Positions 13,621 through 24,102 of a DNA stretch of 64,000 nucleotides are shown piece after piece. Within the stretch, counting starts at the first letter, position 1. Every line of letters starts with the position of its first letter. The position numbers and the translations under genes are program-made. The notes below the pieces were generated by a model that ran no database searches, had not been told where the DNA came from, and saw only the letters and a list, made by a program, of their open reading frames with translations. Source of the DNA: Anaerolineales bacterium (lineage in GTDB: Bacteria; Chloroflexota; Anaerolineae; Anaerolineales; UBA11579); NCBI GenBank assembly GCA_019637675.1, contig JAHBVE010000002.1, positions 207,797 to 271,796 on the forward strand, written 5' to 3'.

Positions 13621-15003
13621 TTACTTGCGCTTGAGCAGGAACAGGGTGCGCTCAGACTCGGCGATGCTGGCTTCAGCCTCAATGTGATAGCGCTGTCCAA
13701 AGGCGTGCCGGAAACCATCCAGCGTGTATTCGTCAAAGATGTCTTTGCGGGCAGCCAGCAGGCGGCGGGTCTGCGAGTCGCTCTTGGGCACAAACTCAAT
13801 GATCAGCCAGGGGGCCAGGCCGGCAAAGAACTCCGCAATGCGACCTAGCGCCAGATTGTTGCCAATGGCCAGGTGGTGGACCAGGGCCAGCGCCATCAGC
13901 GCGTCCGGGGTCCCGCGCTCGGCCAGAGTATGGCGTTCGCCATAAGCCCAGCCAGAGGCCGGGCTGGGGTTCACCAGGTCAATTTGCAAGGGCAGTAGGT
14001 TTTGCTCTTTGTTGGCTTTGGCCTGCAAGTAGTTCTGCTCGACGGCGGCAGGGTCATAATCCTGAGAGACAGTGAAGATGCCCTGGCGGCTGGCGATACG
14101 GCTGTACAAGCCGTTGTTAGCACCAAGATCCCACACCGTCTTGACGGTGATCTTCTTTAGATACTGCTCTACTAACTCCGCCTTATGACGCTCGGCGGCG
14201 TTGCTGTAGTTGGTTTCAGCGTAGTAGTTGCCCCAGGCGCTGCCGGCGGGCTTCCACTTGAGGCCTTGCACGGTACTGCGTAAATGGTCGATCAGGCCGA
14301 GCAAGGCCGTCTTGGTGAGGCCGGGTTTGCCACCGCCGGCTTGCGGCTGGGCGGCGCCGGCATAGCGGCGCTGCGCGCCAGCGTGCGCATGGATATGCAG
14401 CAGCAGACCGCTGTTGAGGCGCGTATGCCAGGGCAGCAGGCGGGACGCCAGGCTGAGGTCTACCCCATCCAACCAGTTGCGCAGCAACTGGTTGAGGCGC
14501 ACATCCACATGGGCCATCAGCGCCAACGGGGCCAGGAAGTGCTGGCAGAACTGGCGATAGGCCGTCCAGGGTTGGCCCTCAGGATAGATCTCAAATGAGA
14601 GGGTGTCCATCAGCACTGGGCGGCCGTTGTGGAACTGGATGTTGCTGTTATTGGCATCCTTCAGCCACATGCCATACTTCAAAGCACGTTTTTGCAGACT
14701 GAGGGTCAAGAGCGCAGCGTCTTTAAGCTGGCTGAAGCTCCACTCGTATGCGTATGAGATATAGGGAATGCGTTCTGGTTGCAGGACCTTGTAGGCCAAC
14801 TCTGGATCGGCCGGCGCAACCTTGACTTCCGTATGCGGGATCATCAGACTGCGCTCGGTGACCTCCGCATACAAGCCCGAACTGTGGAGCAGATCGTAAT
14901 CTGCCTGATAACGCTTGTTCACCTGGCGATAAAGCTGCCCATCCCGCGTAAAAACGAAACCGCTGGGGTCTCTAAAGACTTCAGTTAGTCTAGTTTCAGC
15001 CAT
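13621..15003 (-). CDS. Class I SAM-dependent methyltransferase with a large N-terminal domain (NoeA-like architecture)
   Basis: 460 aa. Motif I is VWDLGANNGLYS, with the acidic post-I residue in SQDYD, in the C-terminal ~190 aa. The N-terminal ~260 aa are unassigned. Confidence 0.65.
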   Translation of the reverse strand: MAETRLTEVFRDPSGFVFTRDGQLYRQVNKRYQADYDLLHSSGLYAEVTERSLMIPHTEVKVAPADPELAYKVLQPERIPYISYAYEWSFSQLKDAALLTLSLQKRALKYGMWLKDANNSNIQFHNGRPVLMDTLSFEIYPEGQPWTAYRQFCQHFLAPLALMAHVDVRLNQLLRNWLDGVDLSLASRLLPWHTRLNSGLLLHIHAHAGAQRRYAGAAQPQAGGGKPGLTKTALLGLIDHLRSTVQGLKWKPAGSAWGNYYAETNYSNAAERHKAELVEQYLKKITVKTVWDLGANNGLYSRIASRQGIFTVSQDYDPAAVEQNYLQAKANKEQNLLPLQIDLVNPSPASGWAYGERHTLAERGTPDALMALALVHHLAIGNNLALGRIAEFFAGLAPWLIIEFVPKSDSQTRRLLAARKDIFDEYTLDGFRHAFGQRYHIEAEASIAESERTLFLLKRK

Positions 15004-15012
15004 GCAAGGAGT

Positions 15013-15240
15013 TTATTCTTCGTTGTCAGGATCAGTGGCGTCTTCATCCTTATTGCGGCGGAAGACTTTGAACAGGCGACCAATAGAATGGCGGAAGGCA
15101 TAGCTGACTGCGGCCGCGCCTGCGATGATCAGCTGCAGAATCAACGAACCGGAGCCCGGGTCAAGATATTGGGGGTCTGATGCAGCCGGGATAAAGAGCA
15201 CACCGGCCAACAGCCACTTAGAAAGTTCTTCTTTCTTCAT
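15013..15240 (-). CDS. Small membrane protein (75 aa) with YLDPGSGS motif and an acidic tail
   Basis: Two hydrophobic segments (WLLAGVLFIPAA; LILQLIIAGAAAVSYAF). It sits 9 nt upstream of the methyltransferase, with AAGGAA upstream of the ATG. Confidence 0.5.
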   Translation of the reverse strand: MKKEELSKWLLAGVLFIPAASDPQYLDPGSGSLILQLIIAGAAAVSYAFRHSIGRLFKVFRRNKDEDATDPDNEE

Positions 15241-15292
15241 TTGAGTTGTTCCTTATAGAGAATTTGCTTCAAAAAGCAACTATAACATCTTA

Positions 15293-16132
15293 CTAGCTCA
15301 TCAATTCCGCATGCAAGGCCTGCAGCCCCAGGATCGCCTGCCCCAGGCGTGTGCCTGGCCAGGTAAGCAGGCTGCCGTCCAGCAGGCGAACATGTTGAAC
15401 AGCGAACTGGCCCCCTAGCCCATCGGCCAGATACTGTGCATCCGCCTCGGCGAAAGCATAAGGCTCGGAAGGCAGCAGCGCGGCCCGCGGCCCCGCCGCG
15501 GCGATCTCTGCCAGGGTGACGCGCGGATAGCGCGTATCCCGCCCGGTGGCGTGCTCCGGGCGCGTACCCGCTTGGCCCAGGTCAGCGGCCAGCGGATAAC
15601 GGCGTTCACGCTCGGCAAAGATGTTGGCAAAGCCACATAAGGCCAGCAGATCATGTGTAAAAGTATGACGGTTGAGCGTCATCCACCACTCCGGATTGCC
15701 GGCCTGGTACCACACCGGCACGAAAACGGGCACAGGCTGCGGCTGCTGGCGGCGGGCGGCAGCCACTTGCTCCACAAGCTGCTGCACGCAGGCAGCAGCC
15801 TGGGCGCCGCCAAACAGGGCGGCCATACTGCCCAGATCGGCCAGGGCGTGCTCGACTGTGCGTGGAAAGTGCATCACGACATTCAGGCCGGCCGCTCGCA
15901 GGCCCTCAACAGCCTGTTGCGTGTTTTCTTCCTGATTGGCAAAGACGACATCGGGTTGCAGCGCAATGATCTCGGACAGGCGCGGGTTCTTGGTGCCGCC
16001 GATGCGCGGCAGGCCGGCCAACGCCTCGGCGGGATGGATGCAGTAGTCGGTGATGCCCACCAAGGCCTCACCGACACCGAGGTCAAACAGGCTCTCGGTG
16101 ATCGATGGCACCAGAGAAACGACGCGGCGCAT
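15293..16132 (-). CDS. TroA/BtuF-like (helical-backbone) substrate-binding protein without a signal peptide
   Basis: 279 aa. It starts directly with RVVSLVPSITESLFDLGVGEALVGITDYC and has GGTKNPRLSEIIALQPDVVF, the class III SBP pattern. No N-terminal hydrophobic leader. Confidence 0.65.
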   Translation of the reverse strand: MRRVVSLVPSITESLFDLGVGEALVGITDYCIHPAEALAGLPRIGGTKNPRLSEIIALQPDVVFANQEENTQQAVEGLRAAGLNVVMHFPRTVEHALADLGSMAALFGGAQAAACVQQLVEQVAAARRQQPQPVPVFVPVWYQAGNPEWWMTLNRHTFTHDLLALCGFANIFAERERRYPLAADLGQAGTRPEHATGRDTRYPRVTLAEIAAAGPRAALLPSEPYAFAEADAQYLADGLGGQFAVQHVRLLDGSLLTWPGTRLGQAILGLQALHAELMS

Positions 16133-16253
16133 ACGTTCAAGTATACAAGCGTGGTTTATGGAACTTAGGTGTAACCGATTCCATAATTAGCTGGTACTAA
16201 TCTGCTTCTTAAGCAGCCTGCCTATACTGAGCAAAACCTGAGGAGGTAGTGCA

Positions 16254-16703
16254 ATGAACTCGCTTTCACGCAACATTGCTTTCGCCATACTCCTGCTCCT
16301 TCTGCTGAGCGCCTGCGGCAGCCCGGCGCCCGCTACCGAGGCGCCTGCTCAAGCCACTGAAACCGAACATGTTGACCACCCCACTCAAGCGCCTGCGCCA
16401 ACAGCGGCTCCTACCCAGGCGCCAGCTGACGAAGACGGCGGGACGACTGTGACCATCGCCAATTTCTCTTTTGGCCCCGGAACGCTGACCGTGAAGGCGG
16501 GCACTACCGTGACCTGGCGCAACAACGAAGACGCGCCCCACACGGTGACGGCTGACGACGGCAGCTTTGGCAGCAACACCCTGGGTCAAGGCGACACGTT
16601 CAGCTTCACCTTTGACACGCCCGGCACTTACGACTACTACTGCCAGTTCCACGGCGGCGCGGGCCATGCTGGTATGTCCGGCACGATCGTTGTGGAAGAC
16701 TAG
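16254..16703 (+). CDS. Cupredoxin (plastocyanin/amicyanin-like) lipoprotein
   Basis: Lipobox LLLSAC. Type-1 Cu ligand pattern: H in EDAPHTV plus C-x2-H-x7-M in YYCQFHGGAGHAGMSG. GAGGAGG SD present. Confidence 0.8.
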   Translation: MNSLSRNIAFAILLLLLLSACGSPAPATEAPAQATETEHVDHPTQAPAPTAAPTQAPADEDGGTTVTIANFSFGPGTLTVKAGTTVTWRNNEDAPHTVTADDGSFGSNTLGQGDTFSFTFDTPGTYDYYCQFHGGAGHAGMSGTIVVED

Positions 16704-16720
16704 GCTGACTGGATAACAAT

Positions 16721-16754
16721 AAAAGAAACGCCCGCAAAATTGCGGGCGTTTTTT
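16721..16754. terminator. Bidirectional rho-independent terminator (cupredoxin / ricT convergent)
   Basis: AAACGCCCGCA-AAAT-TGCGGGCGTTTTTT: a 10-bp stem. Confidence 0.8.
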
Positions 16755-16755
16755 G

Positions 16756-17718
16756 TTAGTCGTCGGTCTTGGCCTTATCGCCGTAGTTGGCTTTGCCGCA
16801 GTCGCAGCCGCCGTTCTCATGGCGGTCACACGGCGCTTCGCTCTTGCGGCGCAGCGCCTCCAGCTCATCCCACGGCTCGATCTCGTGCTTGAGGAACTCA
16901 GCGCGCTTGCCCTCGGGCAGCGCCACCAACACAGCTTGCTTGAGCGGCACCACATCCACCACTTTGCCACGGCCCAGCGGGGTCTGCACTTCCTTACCGC
17001 GCTTGGGCAGGGTCTTGCGGGCCTCGACATACTGCTCGTATTCGTAGATCAGGCAGCAGCGCAAGCGGCCGCACATGCCGGTGATCTCGCCCGGGTCGAG
17101 CGAGATGCCCTGCGCCTTGGCCATCTTAATGGAGATGGGGCTGAAGTCGGTCAGGAAAGTGGAGCAGCAGCGGCTTTCCAGACCGCAGGCGCCCATGCCG
17201 CCCAGGATCTTGGCGACGTCACGCGGGCCAACCCGGCGCATCTCGATGTTGGTGTTCTTGTAGAGCTTGAGCATCTCTTTACGCAGCTTGCCCAGGTCTA
17301 TATCTTTGTCTTCTTCCGTGTTGTAGAGGAAAGTCAGCATCTTGCGGTCAAAGCTGAACTCAGCTTTGACGATCTTGACACCGCGGTAATTCAGCTTAGA
17401 TGCGGCGGCACGCGCCTCGATCATGGCTTCAATTTCTTTTTTCTGAATGTTTTTGTGAACTTCCAGGTCGCCCTGAGAGGCCTTGCGCTCAATCGCCTTC
17501 CAGGTACCCTGCTGCGGGGGCGCGGGCGGCTCCTCCAGGCGTTGGACTACCTGGCCGATCTGTACGCCGCGGCTGGTCTCGACAATGGCGTAGTCGCCAG
17601 GCTTGAGCTCAGGCTCTTTGCTGGCGTCAAAATGGTACAACTTGCCGATCTTTTGAAAACGGATGCCGACGATCAGCGGGCTTTGCGCCTGCTCAGCCGG
17701 TTGTGGCGAATCAGTCAT
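16756..17718 (-). CDS. ricT: PSP1-domain protein (RicT/YaaT family) with a Cys-rich C-terminal extension
   Basis: ORF 16756..17757. Start set to ATG 17718 (MTDSPQP). The PSP1 core is present: IVGIRFQKIGKLYHFDA, GDYAIVETSRGVQIG, CGLESRCCSTFL, GMCGRLRCCLIYE. The tail contains CDRHENGGCDCG. Confidence 0.8.
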   Translation of the reverse strand: MTDSPQPAEQAQSPLIVGIRFQKIGKLYHFDASKEPELKPGDYAIVETSRGVQIGQVVQRLEEPPAPPQQGTWKAIERKASQGDLEVHKNIQKKEIEAMIEARAAASKLNYRGVKIVKAEFSFDRKMLTFLYNTEEDKDIDLGKLRKEMLKLYKNTNIEMRRVGPRDVAKILGGMGACGLESRCCSTFLTDFSPISIKMAKAQGISLDPGEITGMCGRLRCCLIYEYEQYVEARKTLPKRGKEVQTPLGRGKVVDVVPLKQAVLVALPEGKRAEFLKHEIEPWDELEALRRKSEAPCDRHENGGCDCGKANYGDKAKTDD

Positions 17719-17771
17719 GTTGTTATCGCTGTGGGTGCTTTCACATCCACAGCGCACCTTTCTGCTTTGAG

Positions 17772-17851
17772 CGAATAGTGAGCAGTGATTAGTGATCAGG
17801 AACCTATTTTGGCACAGTCCTGTTCACTGGTCCCTATTCACTGCTCATTCG
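17772..17851 (-). other. About 24-bp imperfect inverted repeat spanning the mrp stop codon, with three AGTGA repeats at 7-nt spacing
   Basis: Left arm is 17772-17800 (AGTGA at 17777, 17784, 17791). Right arm is 17819-17851 (TCACT at 17824, 17838). GAGCAGTGATTAG pairs with CTATTCACTGCTC at 12 of 13 positions. The loop is 18 nt and there is no U-run. Confidence 0.45.
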
Positions 17852-18927
17852 ATTTTAATCGAGAAAGCCTGGATTTGCGCAGCCAAAGCGGCAACCGAAG
17901 TGCGCAGGGCAATATCGGCAGCAATTTCGGTGAGGGCGCGGGCGGCAGGCGAGTCAGGGTGGCTGATGACGATGGGCTTGCCGCTGTCTCCGCCGGCCCG
18001 CACCTGCGGCTCCATAGGCACCGCTCCGATAAAGGGCACACCGAACTCATTAGCCAGCGCTTCGCCGCCACCTTTGCCGAAGACTTCCATACGCTTGCCG
18101 TCCGGCAATTCAAGGTAGCTCATGTTCTCCACGACGCCCATGAGCGGCACACGCAGCTGACGGAACATCTCGGCCCCGCGGCGGGCGTCGTCGGTGGAGA
18201 CTTGCTGCGGCAGCGTGACAATGACCCCGCCGCTGAGCGGCGTGGTCTGCGCCAGGCTGAGCTGCACATCACCGGTGCCAGGCGGCATATCGACGATGAG
18301 ATAATCCAGCTCGCCCCACTCCACATCATTGATGAACTGGCGGATGGCGTTGTGCAGCATGGGGCCGCGCCACACCATGGCCTGCTCGGGCTTGACCAGG
18401 AAGCCGATCGACATCATTTTGACGCCGTAGGCTTCGGCGGGCAGCAGGTGGCCGCTGGCGTCCGGCGGCGCCGGCAGGTGCTTGACGCCCATCATGGTGG
18501 GCACATTGGGGCCATAGACGTCTGAGTCGAGCAGGCCCACGCGGGCGCCGGCTTTGGCTAGCGCAGCAGCCACATTGACCGAGACCGTGCTTTTGCCCAC
18601 CCCGCCCTTGCCGGAGGCGATGGCTACTGTGTTCTTGACGCCGGCGGCCGAACCCGCCCGCGGGCGTCCGTCACCAGGTACTTGCAGGGCAAATTGCAGG
18701 TCGATCTTCTTGGCGCCAGCTTTCTCGAGCGCCTTGCGCACATCTTTCTCAATCTCAGCCAGGAAGGGATGATGGGGGCTGACCAACCCAAGTGTCAGGG
18801 AAACGCTATCACCCTTGACGTCAAGTTTCTGCACCGCATTCAGCAGGACAAAGTCTTTTTGAACAGCGGGCTCTTTAACTTTAGCAAGCGCGGCGAGGAC
18901 AGTTTCGTTGGTGATCTCTTTGGACAT
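17845..18927 (-). CDS. mrp: Mrp/NBP35 (ApbC) family Fe-S cluster carrier ATPase with an N-terminal DUF59-like domain
   Basis: 360 aa. Deviant Walker A IASGKGGVGKST, plus DYLIVDMPPGTGD. Confidence 0.88.
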   Translation of the reverse strand: MSKEITNETVLAALAKVKEPAVQKDFVLLNAVQKLDVKGDSVSLTLGLVSPHHPFLAEIEKDVRKALEKAGAKKIDLQFALQVPGDGRPRAGSAAGVKNTVAIASGKGGVGKSTVSVNVAAALAKAGARVGLLDSDVYGPNVPTMMGVKHLPAPPDASGHLLPAEAYGVKMMSIGFLVKPEQAMVWRGPMLHNAIRQFINDVEWGELDYLIVDMPPGTGDVQLSLAQTTPLSGGVIVTLPQQVSTDDARRGAEMFRQLRVPLMGVVENMSYLELPDGKRMEVFGKGGGEALANEFGVPFIGAVPMEPQVRAGGDSGKPIVISHPDSPAARALTEIAADIALRTSVAALAAQIQAFSIKIE

Positions 18928-18957
18928 ATTATGAATTCTAACTCGGTGAGGCTAATC

Positions 18958-19272
18958 CTACTCAGCAGCTTCTTCTAGATCCTTGGCCGCCTTATCGATC
19001 TGTTTGAGCAGCGCCTTCTCACCGCCACGGAAGCGGCGCACATTGTCTTGCGAGCACTCTGTGCAGCCTTTCATGGCGCGGAACGAGTCAGCGTTGCAGT
19101 TATGGCAGCCGTTGACCCGCGCCATAGCCAACACGAACACCACCGCATCCTGGCCATCCGGCCCGGCTTTGTGAGCTTTCTCGGCAGCAGCATGCCACGC
19201 CGCCCCGTGCAGATCACGGATGGCGGGGGTCACGCGTAGCGGATAGAGCAGCTCAGTATCTTCGTTGTACAT
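18958..19272 (-). CDS. Hypothetical small Cys-rich protein (CHNC ... CTEC)
   Basis: 104 aa, between nuoI and mrp on the same strand. Two CxxC pairs (GCHNCNADSFRAMKGCTECS). No family recognised. Confidence 0.5.
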   Translation of the reverse strand: MYNEDTELLYPLRVTPAIRDLHGAAWHAAAEKAHKAGPDGQDAVVFVLAMARVNGCHNCNADSFRAMKGCTECSQDNVRRFRGGEKALLKQIDKAAKDLEEAAE

Positions 19273-19285
19273 CGTGCCTTTTACA

Positions 19286-19312
19286 ACGAAGCGAGGCTAT
19301 GCCTCGCTTCGT
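19286..19312 (-). other. Strong intercistronic hairpin between nuoI and the Cys-rich ORF
   Basis: ACGAAGCGAGGC-TAT-GCCTCGCTTCGT: a 12-bp perfect stem. No U-run on the minus strand, so it is more likely an mRNA processing or stability element than a terminator. Confidence 0.5.
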
Positions 19313-19335
19313 GTCTTTCAGTAGTGATTTTCTAC

Positions 19336-20007
19336 TTACTGCGCCGGCGTGCTGCCTGCGGCAGCGCCATCGGCTGGCTTGGCAGCGGCCGCAGCGGCTT
19401 TAGCCGCAGCGGCGGCAGCCTTCTTGGCGGCTTCCTCAGCCTTCAGGGTCTCCTCACGGTTGTAGTTCGTGGGACGAATGCCGGCGTAGTAGCTGGCAGG
19501 CTTGGAGAGCTTCTCTTTGTTGAAGATGTGCTCAGCATGGCGGTCGAACGAGGCCATCTCATAGTCATGGTCCATCTTGATGGCATCGAACGGGCAGTAT
19601 TCCGCACAATAACCACAGTTCATGCAGATATCCACATCGATGAAGAAATCCACCGGCTCAGGCACGGGGCGCTTGGTCACAGGGTCTTCCGTGCGCACGA
19701 TCCAAATGCACTGCGGCGGGCAAACTTTGGCGCAGATACCGCAGGAGGTACAGCGGTCATGCTTGTTGCCTTCCTCGTCTACATCGTAGACGAGGAAAGG
19801 TACAAAGCGAAACTCCTCTGGCACCGGCAGCTTCTCTTCCGGGTATTGCACGGTGAAGATGCCTTTGGTGTCCTTACTGCGGCGGTGCTGGATGCCCTCT
19901 TTCGAGTAATAGCGGTTGCGGCCCAGCCACTTAATGTCTTCGACATACGAGTCGATGAAGTGGGTCAGGGTCACCCACATGCCTTTGAGAATACCGAGTC
20001 CGTACAT
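19336..20007 (-). CDS. nuoI: NADH-quinone oxidoreductase subunit I (2x[4Fe-4S]) with an Ala/Lys-rich C-terminal tail
   Basis: CTSCGICAKVCP and CMNCGYCAEYCP. GGAGAT SD. The tail reads EEAAKKAAAAAAKAAAAAAKPADGAAAGSTPAQ. Confidence 0.9.
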   Translation of the reverse strand: MYGLGILKGMWVTLTHFIDSYVEDIKWLGRNRYYSKEGIQHRRSKDTKGIFTVQYPEEKLPVPEEFRFVPFLVYDVDEEGNKHDRCTSCGICAKVCPPQCIWIVRTEDPVTKRPVPEPVDFFIDVDICMNCGYCAEYCPFDAIKMDHDYEMASFDRHAEHIFNKEKLSKPASYYAGIRPTNYNREETLKAEEAAKKAAAAAAKAAAAAAKPADGAAAGSTPAQ

Positions 20008-20028
20008 AGTCTTTATCTCCAGCCTGCC

Positions 20029-21798
20029 TTAGCGGTCTACTTCGCCAAGCACAATGTCAATGGAACCGAGGTTGACCACTACGTCAGCCACCTTTTGGCC
20101 TACGCACATCTTCTCGAGCACCGTCAGGTTGATGAAGCTTGGGGCGCGCACATGGTAGCGGGCCGGGTTGCCCTTGCCGTTGGAAACGATGTAGAAGCCC
20201 AGCTCACCCTTAGGGCCTTCCACACGGCCGTAAGACTCGCCAGCCGGCACACGCACCTGATAGGGGTTCTTACCGTTCATGATCTCACCGCCAGGCAGGT
20301 CTTTCAGGGCCTGGTTGAGGATCTGCAAGCTCTGGCGCATTTCATCAATGCGGATCATGTAACGGTCGTACACATCGCCATGCTGGCGCACCGTAACATC
20401 GAACTTGAAGCGGTCATAGATGCTATAGGGGTCCGCGCGGCGGACATCGTACGGCACGCCAGAGGCACGCAGCACGGGGCCGGCGGTGGAGAAGGCGATG
20501 GCCTCCTCCGGAGTGATGACGCCGATGCCTTCGGAGCGGCTGCGCACCAGCTCGTTCTCGGAGAGGTAAATGTCCAGTTCGTCGATCTTACGCGGCAGGC
20601 GCTCGGTCACGAGGGACTTGATCTTCTCCAGCACGCCTTCGGGGAGATCACGCGCTACCCCACCGAAGCGGAAGTAGTTGCACATCATGCGCGAGCCGGT
20701 GGTGGCCTCGAAGATATCCAGGATCAGCTCACGTTCAACGATGGCGTACAGCGCCGGGGTGAAGAAGGCGCCCAGGTCGTTCAGCAGGAAGCCGATGGCC
20801 CACAAGTGGTTACTGATGCGGGTCAGCTCAGCCATGATGACGCGGATGTATTCGGCGCGCTCAGGCGGAGCCGCCTTGTCGCCCATCAGTTTCTCGACTG
20901 CCAGGGCGTAGCCAAAGTTGTTGCTCATAGAGGAAAGATAGTCGAGGCGGTCGGTGAACGGCATGTTCATCGTCCAGGTGTTGCGCTCGCCGATCTTCTC
21001 GTGATTGCGGTGCAGATAGCCCATGACCGGCTTAAGCGCCACGATGGTCTCACCATCCAGGCGCACGGCCATACGGAACACGCCGTGGGTGGAAGGATGC
21101 TGCGGGCCGAGGTTGACGACTACCTGCTCGGTGTCGATATCTTCGCTATATTCACGGGCGGCCTTCTCCAACACTTCATAGAGCTTGGGGTCGTCGGTTT
21201 CTTTGAAACCCGTGGGGTCAAAGCCTTGGGGATAGGCATTATTCTTGTTGAAGGGGTTACGGTCCTCAATGCGATAGACCTGGCCTTCAGGCCAGCGGTT
21301 CTTAAAAGGCTTGACCTCTTCTTCGAAGTAGGCTTCCTTCCAGTCCTTGCGCATTGGGTAACCAGCAAAGCCCTCCCACATCAGAATGCGGCGCTGGTCA
21401 GGATGGCCTTCAAAATTCACGCCGTACAGGTCATACGCTTCGCGCTCCTGGAAGTCAGCGCCAGCGTACAGCGGCGTGAGCGAGGGCACGGTGGAGTTCT
21501 CGCGGGGAGTCTGGACCTTCAGTTCCAGCGCCCCACCACCGGTGGACTTGTAAAAGTGGTAGACCACTTCGATGAAGTTCTCGGCATTGGGGGCGTCAGA
21601 GTAATAGTCGACTGCGGTGACAGAGGAGAGATAGTCGTAGCCCATCTCATCCCGCAAGGCAGTGGCGACTTCGATCAGCTTGCTGGTGTCTACCAAAAAA
21701 CCAGCATAGCCAGGGCGCGCGTCTGCCTTTACGGCATCCGGGAAGCGCTTCTCCAGCTCGCTCTTTTCAACGGGGGCGGCAGTTGTTGCTTCAGTCAT
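20029..21798 (-). CDS. nuoCD: Fused NADH-quinone oxidoreductase subunits C and D
   Basis: 589 aa. A NuoC-like N-terminal ~190 aa is followed by NuoD ([16 protein letters not shown] ... DIVLGEVDR). No NiFe-hydrogenase CxxC ligands. Confidence 0.9.
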
Positions 21799-21807
21799 GC
21801 TTGCCTC

Positions 21808-22488
21808 TTAGCTGGCCGCTTCGGCGGCGGGTGCGGGAGCAGCAGGTGCAGCCGCGGGAGCGGCAGGCTTCTTGCTGGTTTCCTGCTTGATGAGTTCGTT
21901 GTCACGCGGGTCGATCAGATCGGGCCCGAGCAGCGGCACCGGAATGGCCGGGATGTCTTCCTTACCGTACCAGCGCACCTGGGTGATGGATTCGGAGTCG
22001 ATCTTCTCCTGCAATTTCATCAGGCCGTGCAGCAGGGCTTGCGGGGTCGGTGGGCAGCCGGGCACATACACATCCACCGGCACGTATTGGTCCACACCCG
22101 AGACTACGTTGTAGCCCTCTTTGAACGGGCCACCGCCGGAGGCGCAGGCGCCCATCGCCAGCACATACTTGGGCTCAGGCATCTGGTTATACAGACGCAC
22201 GATCTGCGGGATCATTTTCTTGGTGACAGTACCGGAGACGATCATGAGGTCAGACTGGCGCGGGCTGGGGCGCATCACTTCCATACCGAAACGGGCCAGG
22301 TCATAGCGGCTGGCGGCGGTACAGATCATCTCGATGGCGCAGCAAGCCAGACCGAACATCATGGGCCAGACGGAGTAACGGCGGCCCATGTTCCAGATCT
22401 TGTCCAGCGTGGTGATGGCCACGTTCTGGCGCAGCTCAGGCGGAACTTCGTAGCCGGCGCTGTTCACGGTGGGATTGGTTTCAGTCAT
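21808..22488 (-). CDS. nuoB: NADH-quinone oxidoreductase subunit B with an Ala/Pro-rich C-terminal tail
   Basis: [27 protein letters not shown]. The tail reads [21 protein letters not shown]. Confidence 0.9.
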
Positions 22489-22526
22489 GTACGTTCATCT
22501 CCACTAGCGTTGTCCACTACCCCGGT

Positions 22527-22739
22527 TCACACCGGGTTGATTTCCTCAAACCACTCCTGGTAAATTGCAGCCAGGATCTCATCATTGGCCAGCTCCGGAT
22601 CATCCGCAAAGCTGGGCAGAGCGATCGTCCATTGAAAGATCTCACCCAATGAGACGTTTTCCAACGTCTCGTGCGGGTATCGTGCTTTCAACGCCAGCAC
22701 GATCTCATATATGGCGTCCCAATACAGTTGCTGGGCCAT
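22527..22739 (-). CDS. iscX: IscX (YfhJ)-like Fe-S assembly accessory protein
   Basis: 70 aa. It aligns by eye to E. coli IscX as I remember it (W.D..EI..AL...YP......V.....QW...L..F.DDP...N..IL.AI...W.EE). GGGAG SD. Confidence 0.7.
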   Translation of the reverse strand: MAQQLYWDAIYEIVLALKARYPHETLENVSLGEIFQWTIALPSFADDPELANDEILAAIYQEWFEEINPV

Positions 22740-22819
22740 CGCTCCCGATTGTTCTTTCGTTCACATTATACATGGTTGAACATTTGAGTCAACGCCTGTG
22801 AATAAAGTAAATATTTATT

Positions 22820-22828
22820 TGCTAAAAT
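22820..22828 (+). promoter_or_regulatory. Extended -10 promoter (TGcTAAAAT) placed 5 nt before GTG 22834
   Basis: TGCTAAAAT followed by ATAGC, then GTG. No SD. This implies a leaderless transcript. Confidence 0.45.
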
Positions 22829-22833
22829 ATAGC

Positions 22834-23421
22834 GTGCAATCCACTCGCCAAAGCATCCTGGACTACCTAGCTTCCCGCGGCAGCGCTAGTGCCCAGCAAA
22901 TGGCGCAGGCCTTCGGTATGAGCACGCAAAATCTGCGCCGCCACTTGCGCATTCTGGAGCAGCGCGGCCTGATCGCGGTCAGCCAACCCGCAGCCAGCGG
23001 CCGCGGGCGCCCACAGCTGACCTACTCCCTCACTGCGCAGGCCCAGCCTGACCATCTGGCCGGGCTCAGCAGCGCCCTGTTGAGCGGCCTGCGCCCAGCC
23101 AGCCTGCGCCCGCTGGCACAGCGCCTGCTGGGCGGGACGCCCCGCCCAGCCCGCAATACCAGCCAGCGGCTGGTGGCGGCCATGCGCCAGCTGGAGCCAA
23201 TGGGCTACCGGCCGCGCTGGGAGGCCCGCCCCGGTGGTCCGCAGGTGGTGCTCGGCCATTGCCCCTTCGCGGCCATCATCGATAAGCACCCAGAGCTATG
23301 CCAGGTGGACGCGCACATGCTGGAGGAACTGCTGGGCACGGATGCAGAACAAGCCAGCAAGCTGCAGCCTGGTCCACAGGGCACGCTGCAGTGCGTCTTC
23401 CGAATCAAAGAGCGCCGCTGA
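22834..23421 (+). CDS. Winged-helix (ArsR/HTH_20-like) transcriptional regulator with a C-terminal CPF-motif domain
   Basis: ORF 22798..23421. The HTH is STRQSILDYLASRGSASAQQMAQAFGMSTQNLRRHLRILEQRGLI; the C-terminal part has GHCPFAAIIDKHPELC. Start set to GTG 22834 because of promoter geometry; 22798 is not excluded. Confidence 0.7.
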   Translation: MQSTRQSILDYLASRGSASAQQMAQAFGMSTQNLRRHLRILEQRGLIAVSQPAASGRGRPQLTYSLTAQAQPDHLAGLSSALLSGLRPASLRPLAQRLLGGTPRPARNTSQRLVAAMRQLEPMGYRPRWEARPGGPQVVLGHCPFAAIIDKHPELCQVDAHMLEELLGTDAEQASKLQPGPQGTLQCVFRIKERR

Positions 23422-23437
23422 TTGCGGCGCTCTTTTT
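23408..23437. terminator. Bidirectional rho-independent terminator with the regulator's stop codon in the loop
   Basis: AAGAGCGCCGC-TGATT-GCGGCGCTCTTTTT: an 11-bp stem. Confidence 0.75.
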
Positions 23438-23448
23438 AGTGGTGGGGC

Positions 23449-24102
23449 CTAGGGAAACAGTGATGGCAAGTTGAGGCCGATACTGACACCGCCTGAGCCG
23501 CCCCCTACCCCTACTTGCAGGGTATCTAGCACATTGAGGTTAATGCCTTCATCCTCATCGCCATTCTGCTCGTTGCCTCCCTGCAGGTCTAGGTCGACCT
23601 GAAGCTGGAGATTGCCAGTATCGTCATCCGCATCGACATCCAGCTGGGTGCCGACTGCAGGCACTTCGACGCCGAGGTTCGGCAGATCAGTATTGTCGGT
23701 GCCCTGCCTGGGGGCGGCGGTGGCGGTCGCCTTACCGAGATCCAGGTTCACGATCCCGGTCTCGCCCAAGCCAGCATCCACACTCAGGCAGAGCAGACCC
23801 AGCAAGCAGTGATTGCCCGCTACCCCTGTGCCGTTGCCAGGCGGATCCTGCGGCCCGCCCGTGGTGGGCGGTGGGTCTCCGATGGGAGGCACGGCCCCGC
23901 CGCCGGGCAGTAGGCTCGGCCCGCCGTTGTATACGATCAGCGGCGGCTGGCCGGCGCGTTGCGGCCCAAAGCTCAGCGAAAAGTATGGTGAGGTAATTTG
24001 CAGGTGGCTGGCAAAAGCCCCTGCAATGCATAATGCTGGCACCAGGAATAATGTGAGCAGCAGTGCAAGCCAGCGCGAAACTGAAGATGTACGTCCCTGC
24101 AT
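23449..24102 (-). CDS. Secreted or anchored hypothetical protein (signal peptide, Pro/Gly-rich middle, D/N/G-rich C-terminus)
   Basis: 217 aa. N-terminal RWLALLLTLFLVPALCIAGAFA. Low-complexity PPGGGAVPPIGDPPPTTGGPQDPPGNG. No family recognised. Confidence 0.5.
   Translation of the reverse strand: MQGRTSSVSRWLALLLTLFLVPALCIAGAFASHLQITSPYFSLSFGPQRAGQPPLIVYNGGPSLLPGGGAVPPIGDPPPTTGGPQDPPGNGTGVAGNHCLLGLLCLSVDAGLGETGIVNLDLGKATATAAPRQGTDNTDLPNLGVEVPAVGTQLDVDADDDTGNLQLQVDLDLQGGNEQNGDEDEGINLNVLDTLQVGVGGGSGGVSIGLNLPSLFP

Follow-up and report, generated by a model that had tools for sequence, protein, structure and literature searches.

The DNA analysed here, hereafter the window, is a stretch of 64,000 nucleotides (nt) from an Anaerolineales bacterium of the phylum Chloroflexota (GenBank assembly GCA_019637675.1, contig JAHBVE010000002.1, positions 207,797 to 271,796 of the forward strand). 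Between window positions 16756 and 22739 it carries on the minus strand a run of seven genes, in which nuoB, a fused nuoCD and nuoI of respiratory complex I stand among genes for IscX, a small four-cysteine protein, an Mrp-type ATPase and RicT. These genes very probably constitute an operon for the Q-module of the organism's second complex I, one that is split over two loci, belongs to the "2M" type with two NuoM subunits and has no N-module (NuoEFG). This reading is drawn from a complementary orphan membrane arm elsewhere in the genome, from shared descent with unsplit 2M operons, from the co-occurrence of the two halves among relatives, and from the retention of the ligands for the iron-sulfur (Fe-S) clusters.

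The Q-module and its probable partner membrane arm

Gene identities were assigned by Pfam and NCBIfam profile searches on the open reading frames (ORFs) of the window, and complex I genes were surveyed by a tblastn search of the complete 2.25-Mb assembly, with all 14 Nuo subunits as queries. The ORF listing and the profiles bear out exactly the minus-strand gene list, from iscX to ricT, that a preliminary description of this DNA had given. The product of nuoB (21808-22488, minus strand; 226 amino acids) scores above cut-off against both PF01058 and NF005012 (242 bits), and nuoCD (20029-21798, minus) combines PF00329 and PF00346 in a single ORF of 589 codons. The product of nuoI (19336-20007, minus; 223 amino acids) has two 4Fe-4S motifs and NuoI as its best NCBIfam family, its score against TIGR01971 being 92.8 bits, under the cut-off of 113.

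All four ligands of cluster N2 are kept in NuoB (C49 and C50 in GLACCAIEM, C115, and C145 in VPGCPP), and NuoI has the two CxxCxxCxxxCP motifs of clusters N6a and N6b (C86/89/92/96 and C128/131/134/138), so that together the two proteins retain 12 of 12 cluster ligands. The NuoD domain has the quinone-site histidine (GPQHPSTHG, from residue 231) and tyrosine (DRLDY, from residue 283), which align with those of Thermus Nqo4 and which we take to line the quinone cavity at the NuoH interface, as in solved complex I structures (e.g. 2fug/4hea). None of the NiFe cysteine motifs of group-4 hydrogenases was found in the NuoD domain, which ends in ...LGEVDR, and against structure chains NuoCD matches complex I at E = 1e-100, as against 1e-51 for Mbh and 1e-45 for FHL.

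The tblastn survey found no nuoA, nuoH, nuoJ to nuoN or nuoE to nuoG in the contig region of the window; as these genes are found elsewhere only, the window holds no further nuo gene. In this respect, and in stating that the Q-module is encoded apart from the membrane arm, the preliminary description was right. It had also called the module "stand-alone", which does not hold, because a partner arm, nuoA-H-J-K-L-M-M-N, is present elsewhere in the genome. Contig C3 of the assembly (G000) carries this orphan cluster (C3:103443-112568), contig C2 the window genes; no B, C, D or I gene stands beside the cluster, and the subunits that it lacks are exactly those encoded in the window. Two nuoM genes lie between its nuoL and nuoN (C3:106377-107984 and 104894-106369). 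In complexes of the 2M type the lateral helix of NuoL is lengthened to span the extra antiporter-like subunit, and the NuoL2 of the orphan arm has 719 amino acids, compared with 697 in the canonical copy. That copy belongs to a complete canonical nuoABCDEFGHIJKLMN operon at C3:51090-65428, which has its own B, C, D and I genes; the presence of such an operon is one half of what the preliminary description had named as telling against its reading, the other half being that the window genes are not expressed. A single set of nuoE, nuoF and nuoG was found in the genome, in line with the earlier statement that no set is dedicated to the module.

Unsplit 2M operons of the order A-B-C-D-I-H-J-K-L-M-M occur in other Chloroflexota families (loci L093 and L095), and most of their subunits resemble the window B/CD/I and the orphan arm more than they do the canonical set. 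The identities are 60-63% versus 43% for D, 40-42% versus 26-29% for I, 52-62% versus 39-48% for A and 52-54% versus 36-37% for M', while NuoH does not discriminate (41-43% versus 40-44%); the comparison covers the captured subunits, the nuoN of these operons being outside the captured loci. Judged by these identities, the orphan arm and the window genes share descent with the unsplit 2M operons. The two halves also occur together: among 20 sampled genomes, each of the 16 with a split B-CD-I set has the H2-type NuoH (16/16), at a distance of 241-559 kb from that set in closed genomes, and both are absent from two genomes of the same order without complex I.

We infer from these comparisons that the Q-module assembles physically with the orphan arm. 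In such an enzyme NuoB (N2), NuoCD and NuoI (N6a/N6b) would dock onto the NuoA-H-J-K-L-M-M'-N arm encoded on the other contig, and the two halves would form a 12-subunit, quinone-reducing and proton-pumping complex. Its electron donor would presumably be ferredoxin-like, since nuoEFG is found at neither locus, and NADH oxidation would be served by the separate canonical 14-subunit nuoA-N operon. NuoB and NuoI each end in a low-complexity tail of about 20-40 residues, Ala/Pro-rich in NuoB (21808-21880, minus) and Ala/Lys-rich in NuoI (19336-19500, minus), and the electron donor could dock at such tails.

Two further observations concern these loci. Directly downstream of the orphan-arm nuoN, and in the same direction, lie F-type ATP synthase genes (C3:101048-103399), identified by motif as AtpI-like, a subunit, c subunit and b/delta-like. 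In another genome, locus L091 (G002:C142:6594-8312) has an operon in the style of the 14-subunit enzyme, nuoEFG-A-B-CD-H-I-J-K-L, in which C and D are fused and of the same lineage; three TGA codons lie in frame within the CD match, and a pseudogene, assembly errors or recoding are possible explanations for them.

Comparison with known complex I types

The arrangement corresponds to the 2M type described for Chloroflexi, with split nuoB/CD/I, fused nuoCD and two nuoM (Chadwick 2018, ISME J 12:2668, as summarised in PMC7117926). Set against that summary, the system shares the two nuoM genes between nuoL and nuoN, the detached B/CD/I genes, the fusion of C and D, the lack of an N-module at either locus and the taxon, Anaerolineae, and we see no essential difference. 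Because the arrangement is already published, the core finding is a routine instance of it and is not to be counted as a discovery. The section of PMC7117926 that summarises the 2M type makes no mention of IscX, the four-cysteine protein, a cysteine-less Mrp, RicT, or the regulator and palindrome treated below; Hug 2013 (PMC3971608) gives no description of the split arrangement in its main text.

An 11-subunit complex I (NDH-1) without an N-module is known from cyanobacteria and, as nuoABCDHIJKLMN, from Dehalococcoidia (Moparthi & Hagerhall 2011, PMC3144371). The window system resembles it in lacking NuoEFG and in having canonical ligands for N2 and N6a/b as well as the quinone-site residues, and the NuoD of 11-subunit operons in small-genome Chloroflexota is 56-59% identical to that of the window, compared with 39-43% for the organism's own canonical copy. 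It differs in its extra NuoM, its two loci and its fused nuoCD, and in that no donor-docking subunits of the NdhS/NdhV/NdhO type were identified for it.

Predicted transcription unit and conserved gene order

The seven genes from iscX to ricT look like one predicted operon of 6 kb, since one promoter and one terminator bracket them. A sigma-70-type promoter, TTGACT-16-TATAAT (22765-22792, minus; 11 of 12 consensus matches), reads toward iscX and nuoB; no other strong promoter site lies on the minus strand in 15000-23600, and most orthologous loci have a conserved TTGACA/TATAAT. At the other end, five bases past the ricT stop, lies an intrinsic terminator (16726-16751, minus) with an 11-base-pair (bp) stem, 7 GC pairs and a U-run (-20.8 kcal/mol, z = -5.4), again the sole strong one on the minus strand in 15000-23600. 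The intergenic gaps measure 9-126 nt, and the scan of 15000-23600 gave no match to a promoter or terminator inside the run. A GC-rich hairpin of 12 bp without a U-run stands directly 3' of the nuoI stop (19283-19314, minus; -27 kcal/mol, z = -4.6), with a comparable one in 23 of 71 orthologous loci, and because of it the single operon is only a prediction. This hairpin may be an mRNA stabiliser or a partial attenuator between structural and accessory genes. A U-run is missing also from a long imperfect hairpin over the mrp stop and the mrp-ricT spacer (17772-17851, minus; -33.9 kcal/mol, z = -3.35), and the two hairpins could make stability differ along the mRNA.

The gene order was compared over 80 fetched loci, all from Anaerolineales and including Bellilinea caldifistulae and a metagenome-assembled genome of Anaerolinea thermophila, in which NuoCD identity ranges from 67 to 86%. 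The order is near-invariant: the regulator, divergent, then [iscX] nuoB nuoCD nuoI [four-Cys gene] mrp ricT, the bracketed genes being those that come and go. The adjacency is thus not unique to one genome. The gene iscX precedes nuoB in 39 of the 80 loci and does so in two further families of the class, and the four-Cys gene is present in about half of the 80; the outer genes (CAP protein, TroA-like) are variable. Within the class, nuoBCDI and mrp are no more than 5 kb apart in two further families, and three families (f12, f17 and f42) have a split B-CD-I set with none of these neighbours. In two genomes of the same order, G076 and G148, mrp is directly followed by ricT, yet NuoD and NuoH are missing; neither the regulator nor iscX was found at the mrp-ricT pair of these genomes. 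They are 99% and 98% complete (G076:C1 and G148, loci L104 and L105) and have complex I of neither kind. As these linkages differ in taxonomic depth, the pieces appear to have been joined in steps: on present comparisons the iscX-nuoB link and the placing of mrp near nuoI belong to the level of the class, and the mrp-ricT pairing, the regulator and the palindrome to that of the order.

Accessory proteins

The Mrp/ApbC-like P-loop ATPase (17845-18927, minus) combines PF10609 (NUBPL-type) with PF01883 (DUF59). It has, from residue 106, the deviant Walker A motif GKGGVGKS, which defines the Mrp/NBP35/ApbC carriers (PMC6345978). The other family signature, a CxxC essential in characterised members (PMC6345978), is missing; the protein has zero cysteines, and the sequence E-L-P-D stands at the CxxC position, the segment ENMSYLELPDG aligning to ENMSVHICSNCG of Escherichia coli Mrp (8zkc) and to ENMSYFVCPNCG of AF2382 (2ph1). 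The loss is identical in all Anaerolineales Mrp orthologues with a readable motif (66 of 70), and in the Mrp of two other families of the class the CxxC loop is deleted. The matches of a homologue search with the window Mrp were all close Anaerolineales relatives. The window Mrp thus resembles Ind1/NUBPL and ApbC/Mrp in its deviant P-loop and DUF59 N-domain, matching E. coli Mrp (8zkc) at 44% identity and E = 3.5e-76, and it differs from them in having no CxxC for a bridging [4Fe-4S] cluster. Since this motif and all cysteines are missing, it would be unable to carry a cluster in the canonical way. Eukaryotic complex I requires Ind1, and a further likeness to Ind1 is the genomic linkage of the window Mrp to the Fe-S subunits of complex I.

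RicT/PSP1 (16756-17757, minus, with a likely start at ATG 17718) reaches 196.6 bits against NF041131 (cut-off 70) and keeps its cysteine motifs, GACGLESRCC (C191/197/198) and CGRLRCC (C229/234/235). In exceeding the NCBIfam cut-off and conserving these motifs it is like Bacillus subtilis RicT (YaaT), a member of RicAFT. It differs in adjoining mrp and nuo genes, the context in Bacillus being holB-yaaT-yabA, and in its genome, where a search for RicA/RicF (PF06133) gave no match at E <= 0.1. IscX (22527-22739, minus; 70 amino acids, no cysteine) scores 49 bits against TIGR03412 (cut-off 40.4) and 43.5 against PF04384 (cut-off 25); its gene comes first in the nuoB operon and not, as in isc operons with IscS and IscU, last. 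For Fe-S assembly, sufCBD-x-SU was found in the genome at C1:754920-760964, IscS and IscU not having been searched for separately. Mrp, RicT and IscX are each single-copy in the genome by tblastn.

The remaining protein, of 104 amino acids (18958-19272, minus), has a CxxC-x10-CxxC pattern and no family match, a search of NCBIfam at E <= 10 giving just an insignificant match to a PriA zinc finger. Its alignment has P11, W26, C56, C59, C70 and C73 as invariant residues and points to purifying selection, and by its sequence the ORF is a real gene. An AlphaFold (AF2) model is an all-helical bundle (pLDDT 89.7, pTM 0.81), for which Foldseek found no fold match in the PDB under E = 3. The protein is rare, with 284 representatives among 1.84 billion proteins, and patchy within the class; all genomes in which it was found there have the split module (4/4), its gene being distant from the nuo genes in two of the four. 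It is absent genome-wide from nine genomes of the same order that have the cysteine-less Mrp, and for these reasons we consider it accessory and not required. The idea that it supplies the missing cysteines of Mrp in trans is weakened by the same nine genomes.

The divergent regulator and its candidate operator

Divergent from the operon lies a gene for an ArsR/SufR-like winged helix-turn-helix (HTH) regulator (22834-23421, plus), whose C-terminal domain has three conserved cysteines. The long ORF begins at GTG 22798, and in its numbering these are C155, C168 and C199, conserved to 98-100% in 59 orthologues; the regulator sits divergently upstream in 59 of the 80 loci. Conservation sets in at residue 17 of the long ORF, and the AT-rich segment before it (22798-22833, plus) holds a palindrome and a -10-like box. 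The true start is likely GTG 22834, which would give a leaderless mRNA.

The palindrome, GTAAATATTTATTTGC (22807-22822, strand-less; consensus ACGCAAAT-N4-ATTTGCGT), is a candidate operator. Its core starts 27 bp before the nuo-side -35 box and ends 11 nt before the regulator GTG, and with at most two mismatches it recurs, at a fixed offset to the promoter, in 38 of the 59 intergenic regions of orthologous loci, where shuffling gave about 1.8. A genome scan for GCAAAT-N3-5-ATTTGC with at most one mismatch gave one intergenic site near these genes; the sole other genomic site within one mismatch of GCAAAT-N4-ATTTGC is at C1:772715-772730 (GCAAATACCAATTTGT). Outside the order, regulator and palindrome were sought and not found.

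In several respects the regulator recalls cyanobacterial and actinobacterial SufR: its winged HTH matches SufR_cyano best, it has a C-terminal cysteine domain (C-x12-C-x30-C), and it stands divergent to an operon of Fe-S-related genes and has a palindromic site beside it. It differs in that the alignment to SufR_cyano is confined to the HTH part, at 54.9 bits far under the family cut-off of 178.8, and in that it is not beside the suf operon. The whole-genome scan (at most one mismatch) found no palindrome upstream of sufC; the regulator therefore appears to be local and not the suf regulator, and the idea of a SufR regulon was rejected.

Neighbouring features

The genes that flank the run are unrelated to it (EamA, TroA-like, CAP-domain protein, AzlCD, GlmS). 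The TroA/BtuF-like "helical backbone metal receptor" protein (15293-16132, minus) lies just beyond the operon terminator, and a homologue is found downstream of ricT, at varying distance, in 31 of the 80 related loci. On the plus strand, a stop-free ORF of 1079 codons (19324-22563) runs antisense to nuoI, nuoCD and nuoB. Since every family match falls on the minus strand, this appears to be the shadow ORF of a region with high GC content and strong codon bias, and not a gene.

Alternative explanations

The Q-module genes are physically apart from all membrane subunits, and the genome has an Mrp antiporter operon (C1:225372-231463), so that one might see in the module a soluble oxidoreductase, or a partner of another membrane complex of the Mrp-antiporter type or like Mbh/Mbx. 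The preliminary description had suggested such a different partner complex, which we consider very improbable in view of an orphan arm that is exactly complementary and appears to come from the same ancestral operon, of the strict phyletic co-occurrence of the two, and of the retained His and Tyr of the NuoH interface. The antiporter operon, having no NuoH-like gene, was rejected as the membrane partner. Some points do weigh against the split 2M enzyme as we describe it, with only loosely tied accessory genes. The canonical membrane arm is in principle able to accept the window Q-module too, the post-nuoI hairpin may partly uncouple the downstream genes, and the persistence of mrp-ricT synteny at 62-86% NuoCD identity could mean that the functional tie is stronger than we have allowed.

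The significance of the accessory genes is a separate matter. IscX, the four-cysteine protein, Mrp or RicT might have some role in maturing the enzyme; the preliminary description had gone further and read a co-transcribed, dedicated maturation cassette. On such a view all four would be specialised assembly factors that supply NuoB and NuoI with their three [4Fe-4S] clusters, as a bacterial analogue of Ind1/NUBPL. The look of a single unit, seven genes between one promoter (22792-22765) and one terminator (16751-16726), stands, and the order conserved in 80 Anaerolineales loci, the spacing of nuoBCDI and mrp within 5 kb in two more families, iscX directly 5' of nuoB across the class and the confinement of the four-cysteine protein to split-module genomes all speak for a cassette. 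Its dedication to maturation is weakened by an Mrp with the essential CxxC (PMC6345978) replaced by E-L-P-D or deleted, by mrp-ricT pairs in G076 and G148 without NuoD or NuoH, and by the sole genomic copies of Mrp, RicT and IscX, which would have to serve every other client or other functions. The loss of iscX and of the four-Cys gene from about half of the loci each, the families f12, f17 and f42 with none of these neighbours and the missing RicA/RicF partners point the same way, and we think such a cassette unlikely. Unlikely too is a fuller version, in which a three-cysteine regulator sensing Fe-S or redox state couples the 2M Fe-S arm with IscX, the new-fold four-cysteine protein, the cysteine-less Mrp and RicT, and Mrp acts as an ATP-driven chaperone whose partner supplies the cysteines, as a counterpart of Ind1-dependent assembly. 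At the opposite end, the adjacency may be historical, a rearrangement at the level of the order having placed nuoBCDI beside an older mrp-ricT pair that has stayed through inertia, with no function. The independence of that pair from nuo genes, the limits of the linkage to one order or class and the variable outer genes agree with this, which is a possibility to be taken seriously, if not the one we favour: the order holds over 62-86% NuoCD identity and many genera, the gaps are short (9-126 nt) with no internal promoter or terminator match, and the conserved regulator site argues for selection on co-expression at least. IscX, Mrp and RicT are probably general, single-copy, Fe-S-related genes and not a private maturation cassette, and they are probably co-regulated with a module that is very rich in Fe-S clusters. 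The most likely reading is this middle ground, in which an Fe-S-rich module and Fe-S-related genes are placed under a local, cysteine-bearing regulator.

Implications

Cluster delivery to complex I is known mainly from eukaryotic Ind1, and should any of the accessory proteins prove to be an assembly factor or an additional subunit, it would shed light on cluster delivery to the bacterial enzyme. The accessory genes might also point to the electron donor of the 2M enzyme. The palindrome and regulator make up a regulatory element that lends itself to direct testing, in a phylum for which, to our knowledge, almost no regulators have been characterised. It is the conserved and apparently regulated operon, tying the Fe-S arm of a complex I without an N-module to a cysteine-less Mrp, RicT, IscX and a four-cysteine protein without a known fold, that may be worth following up.

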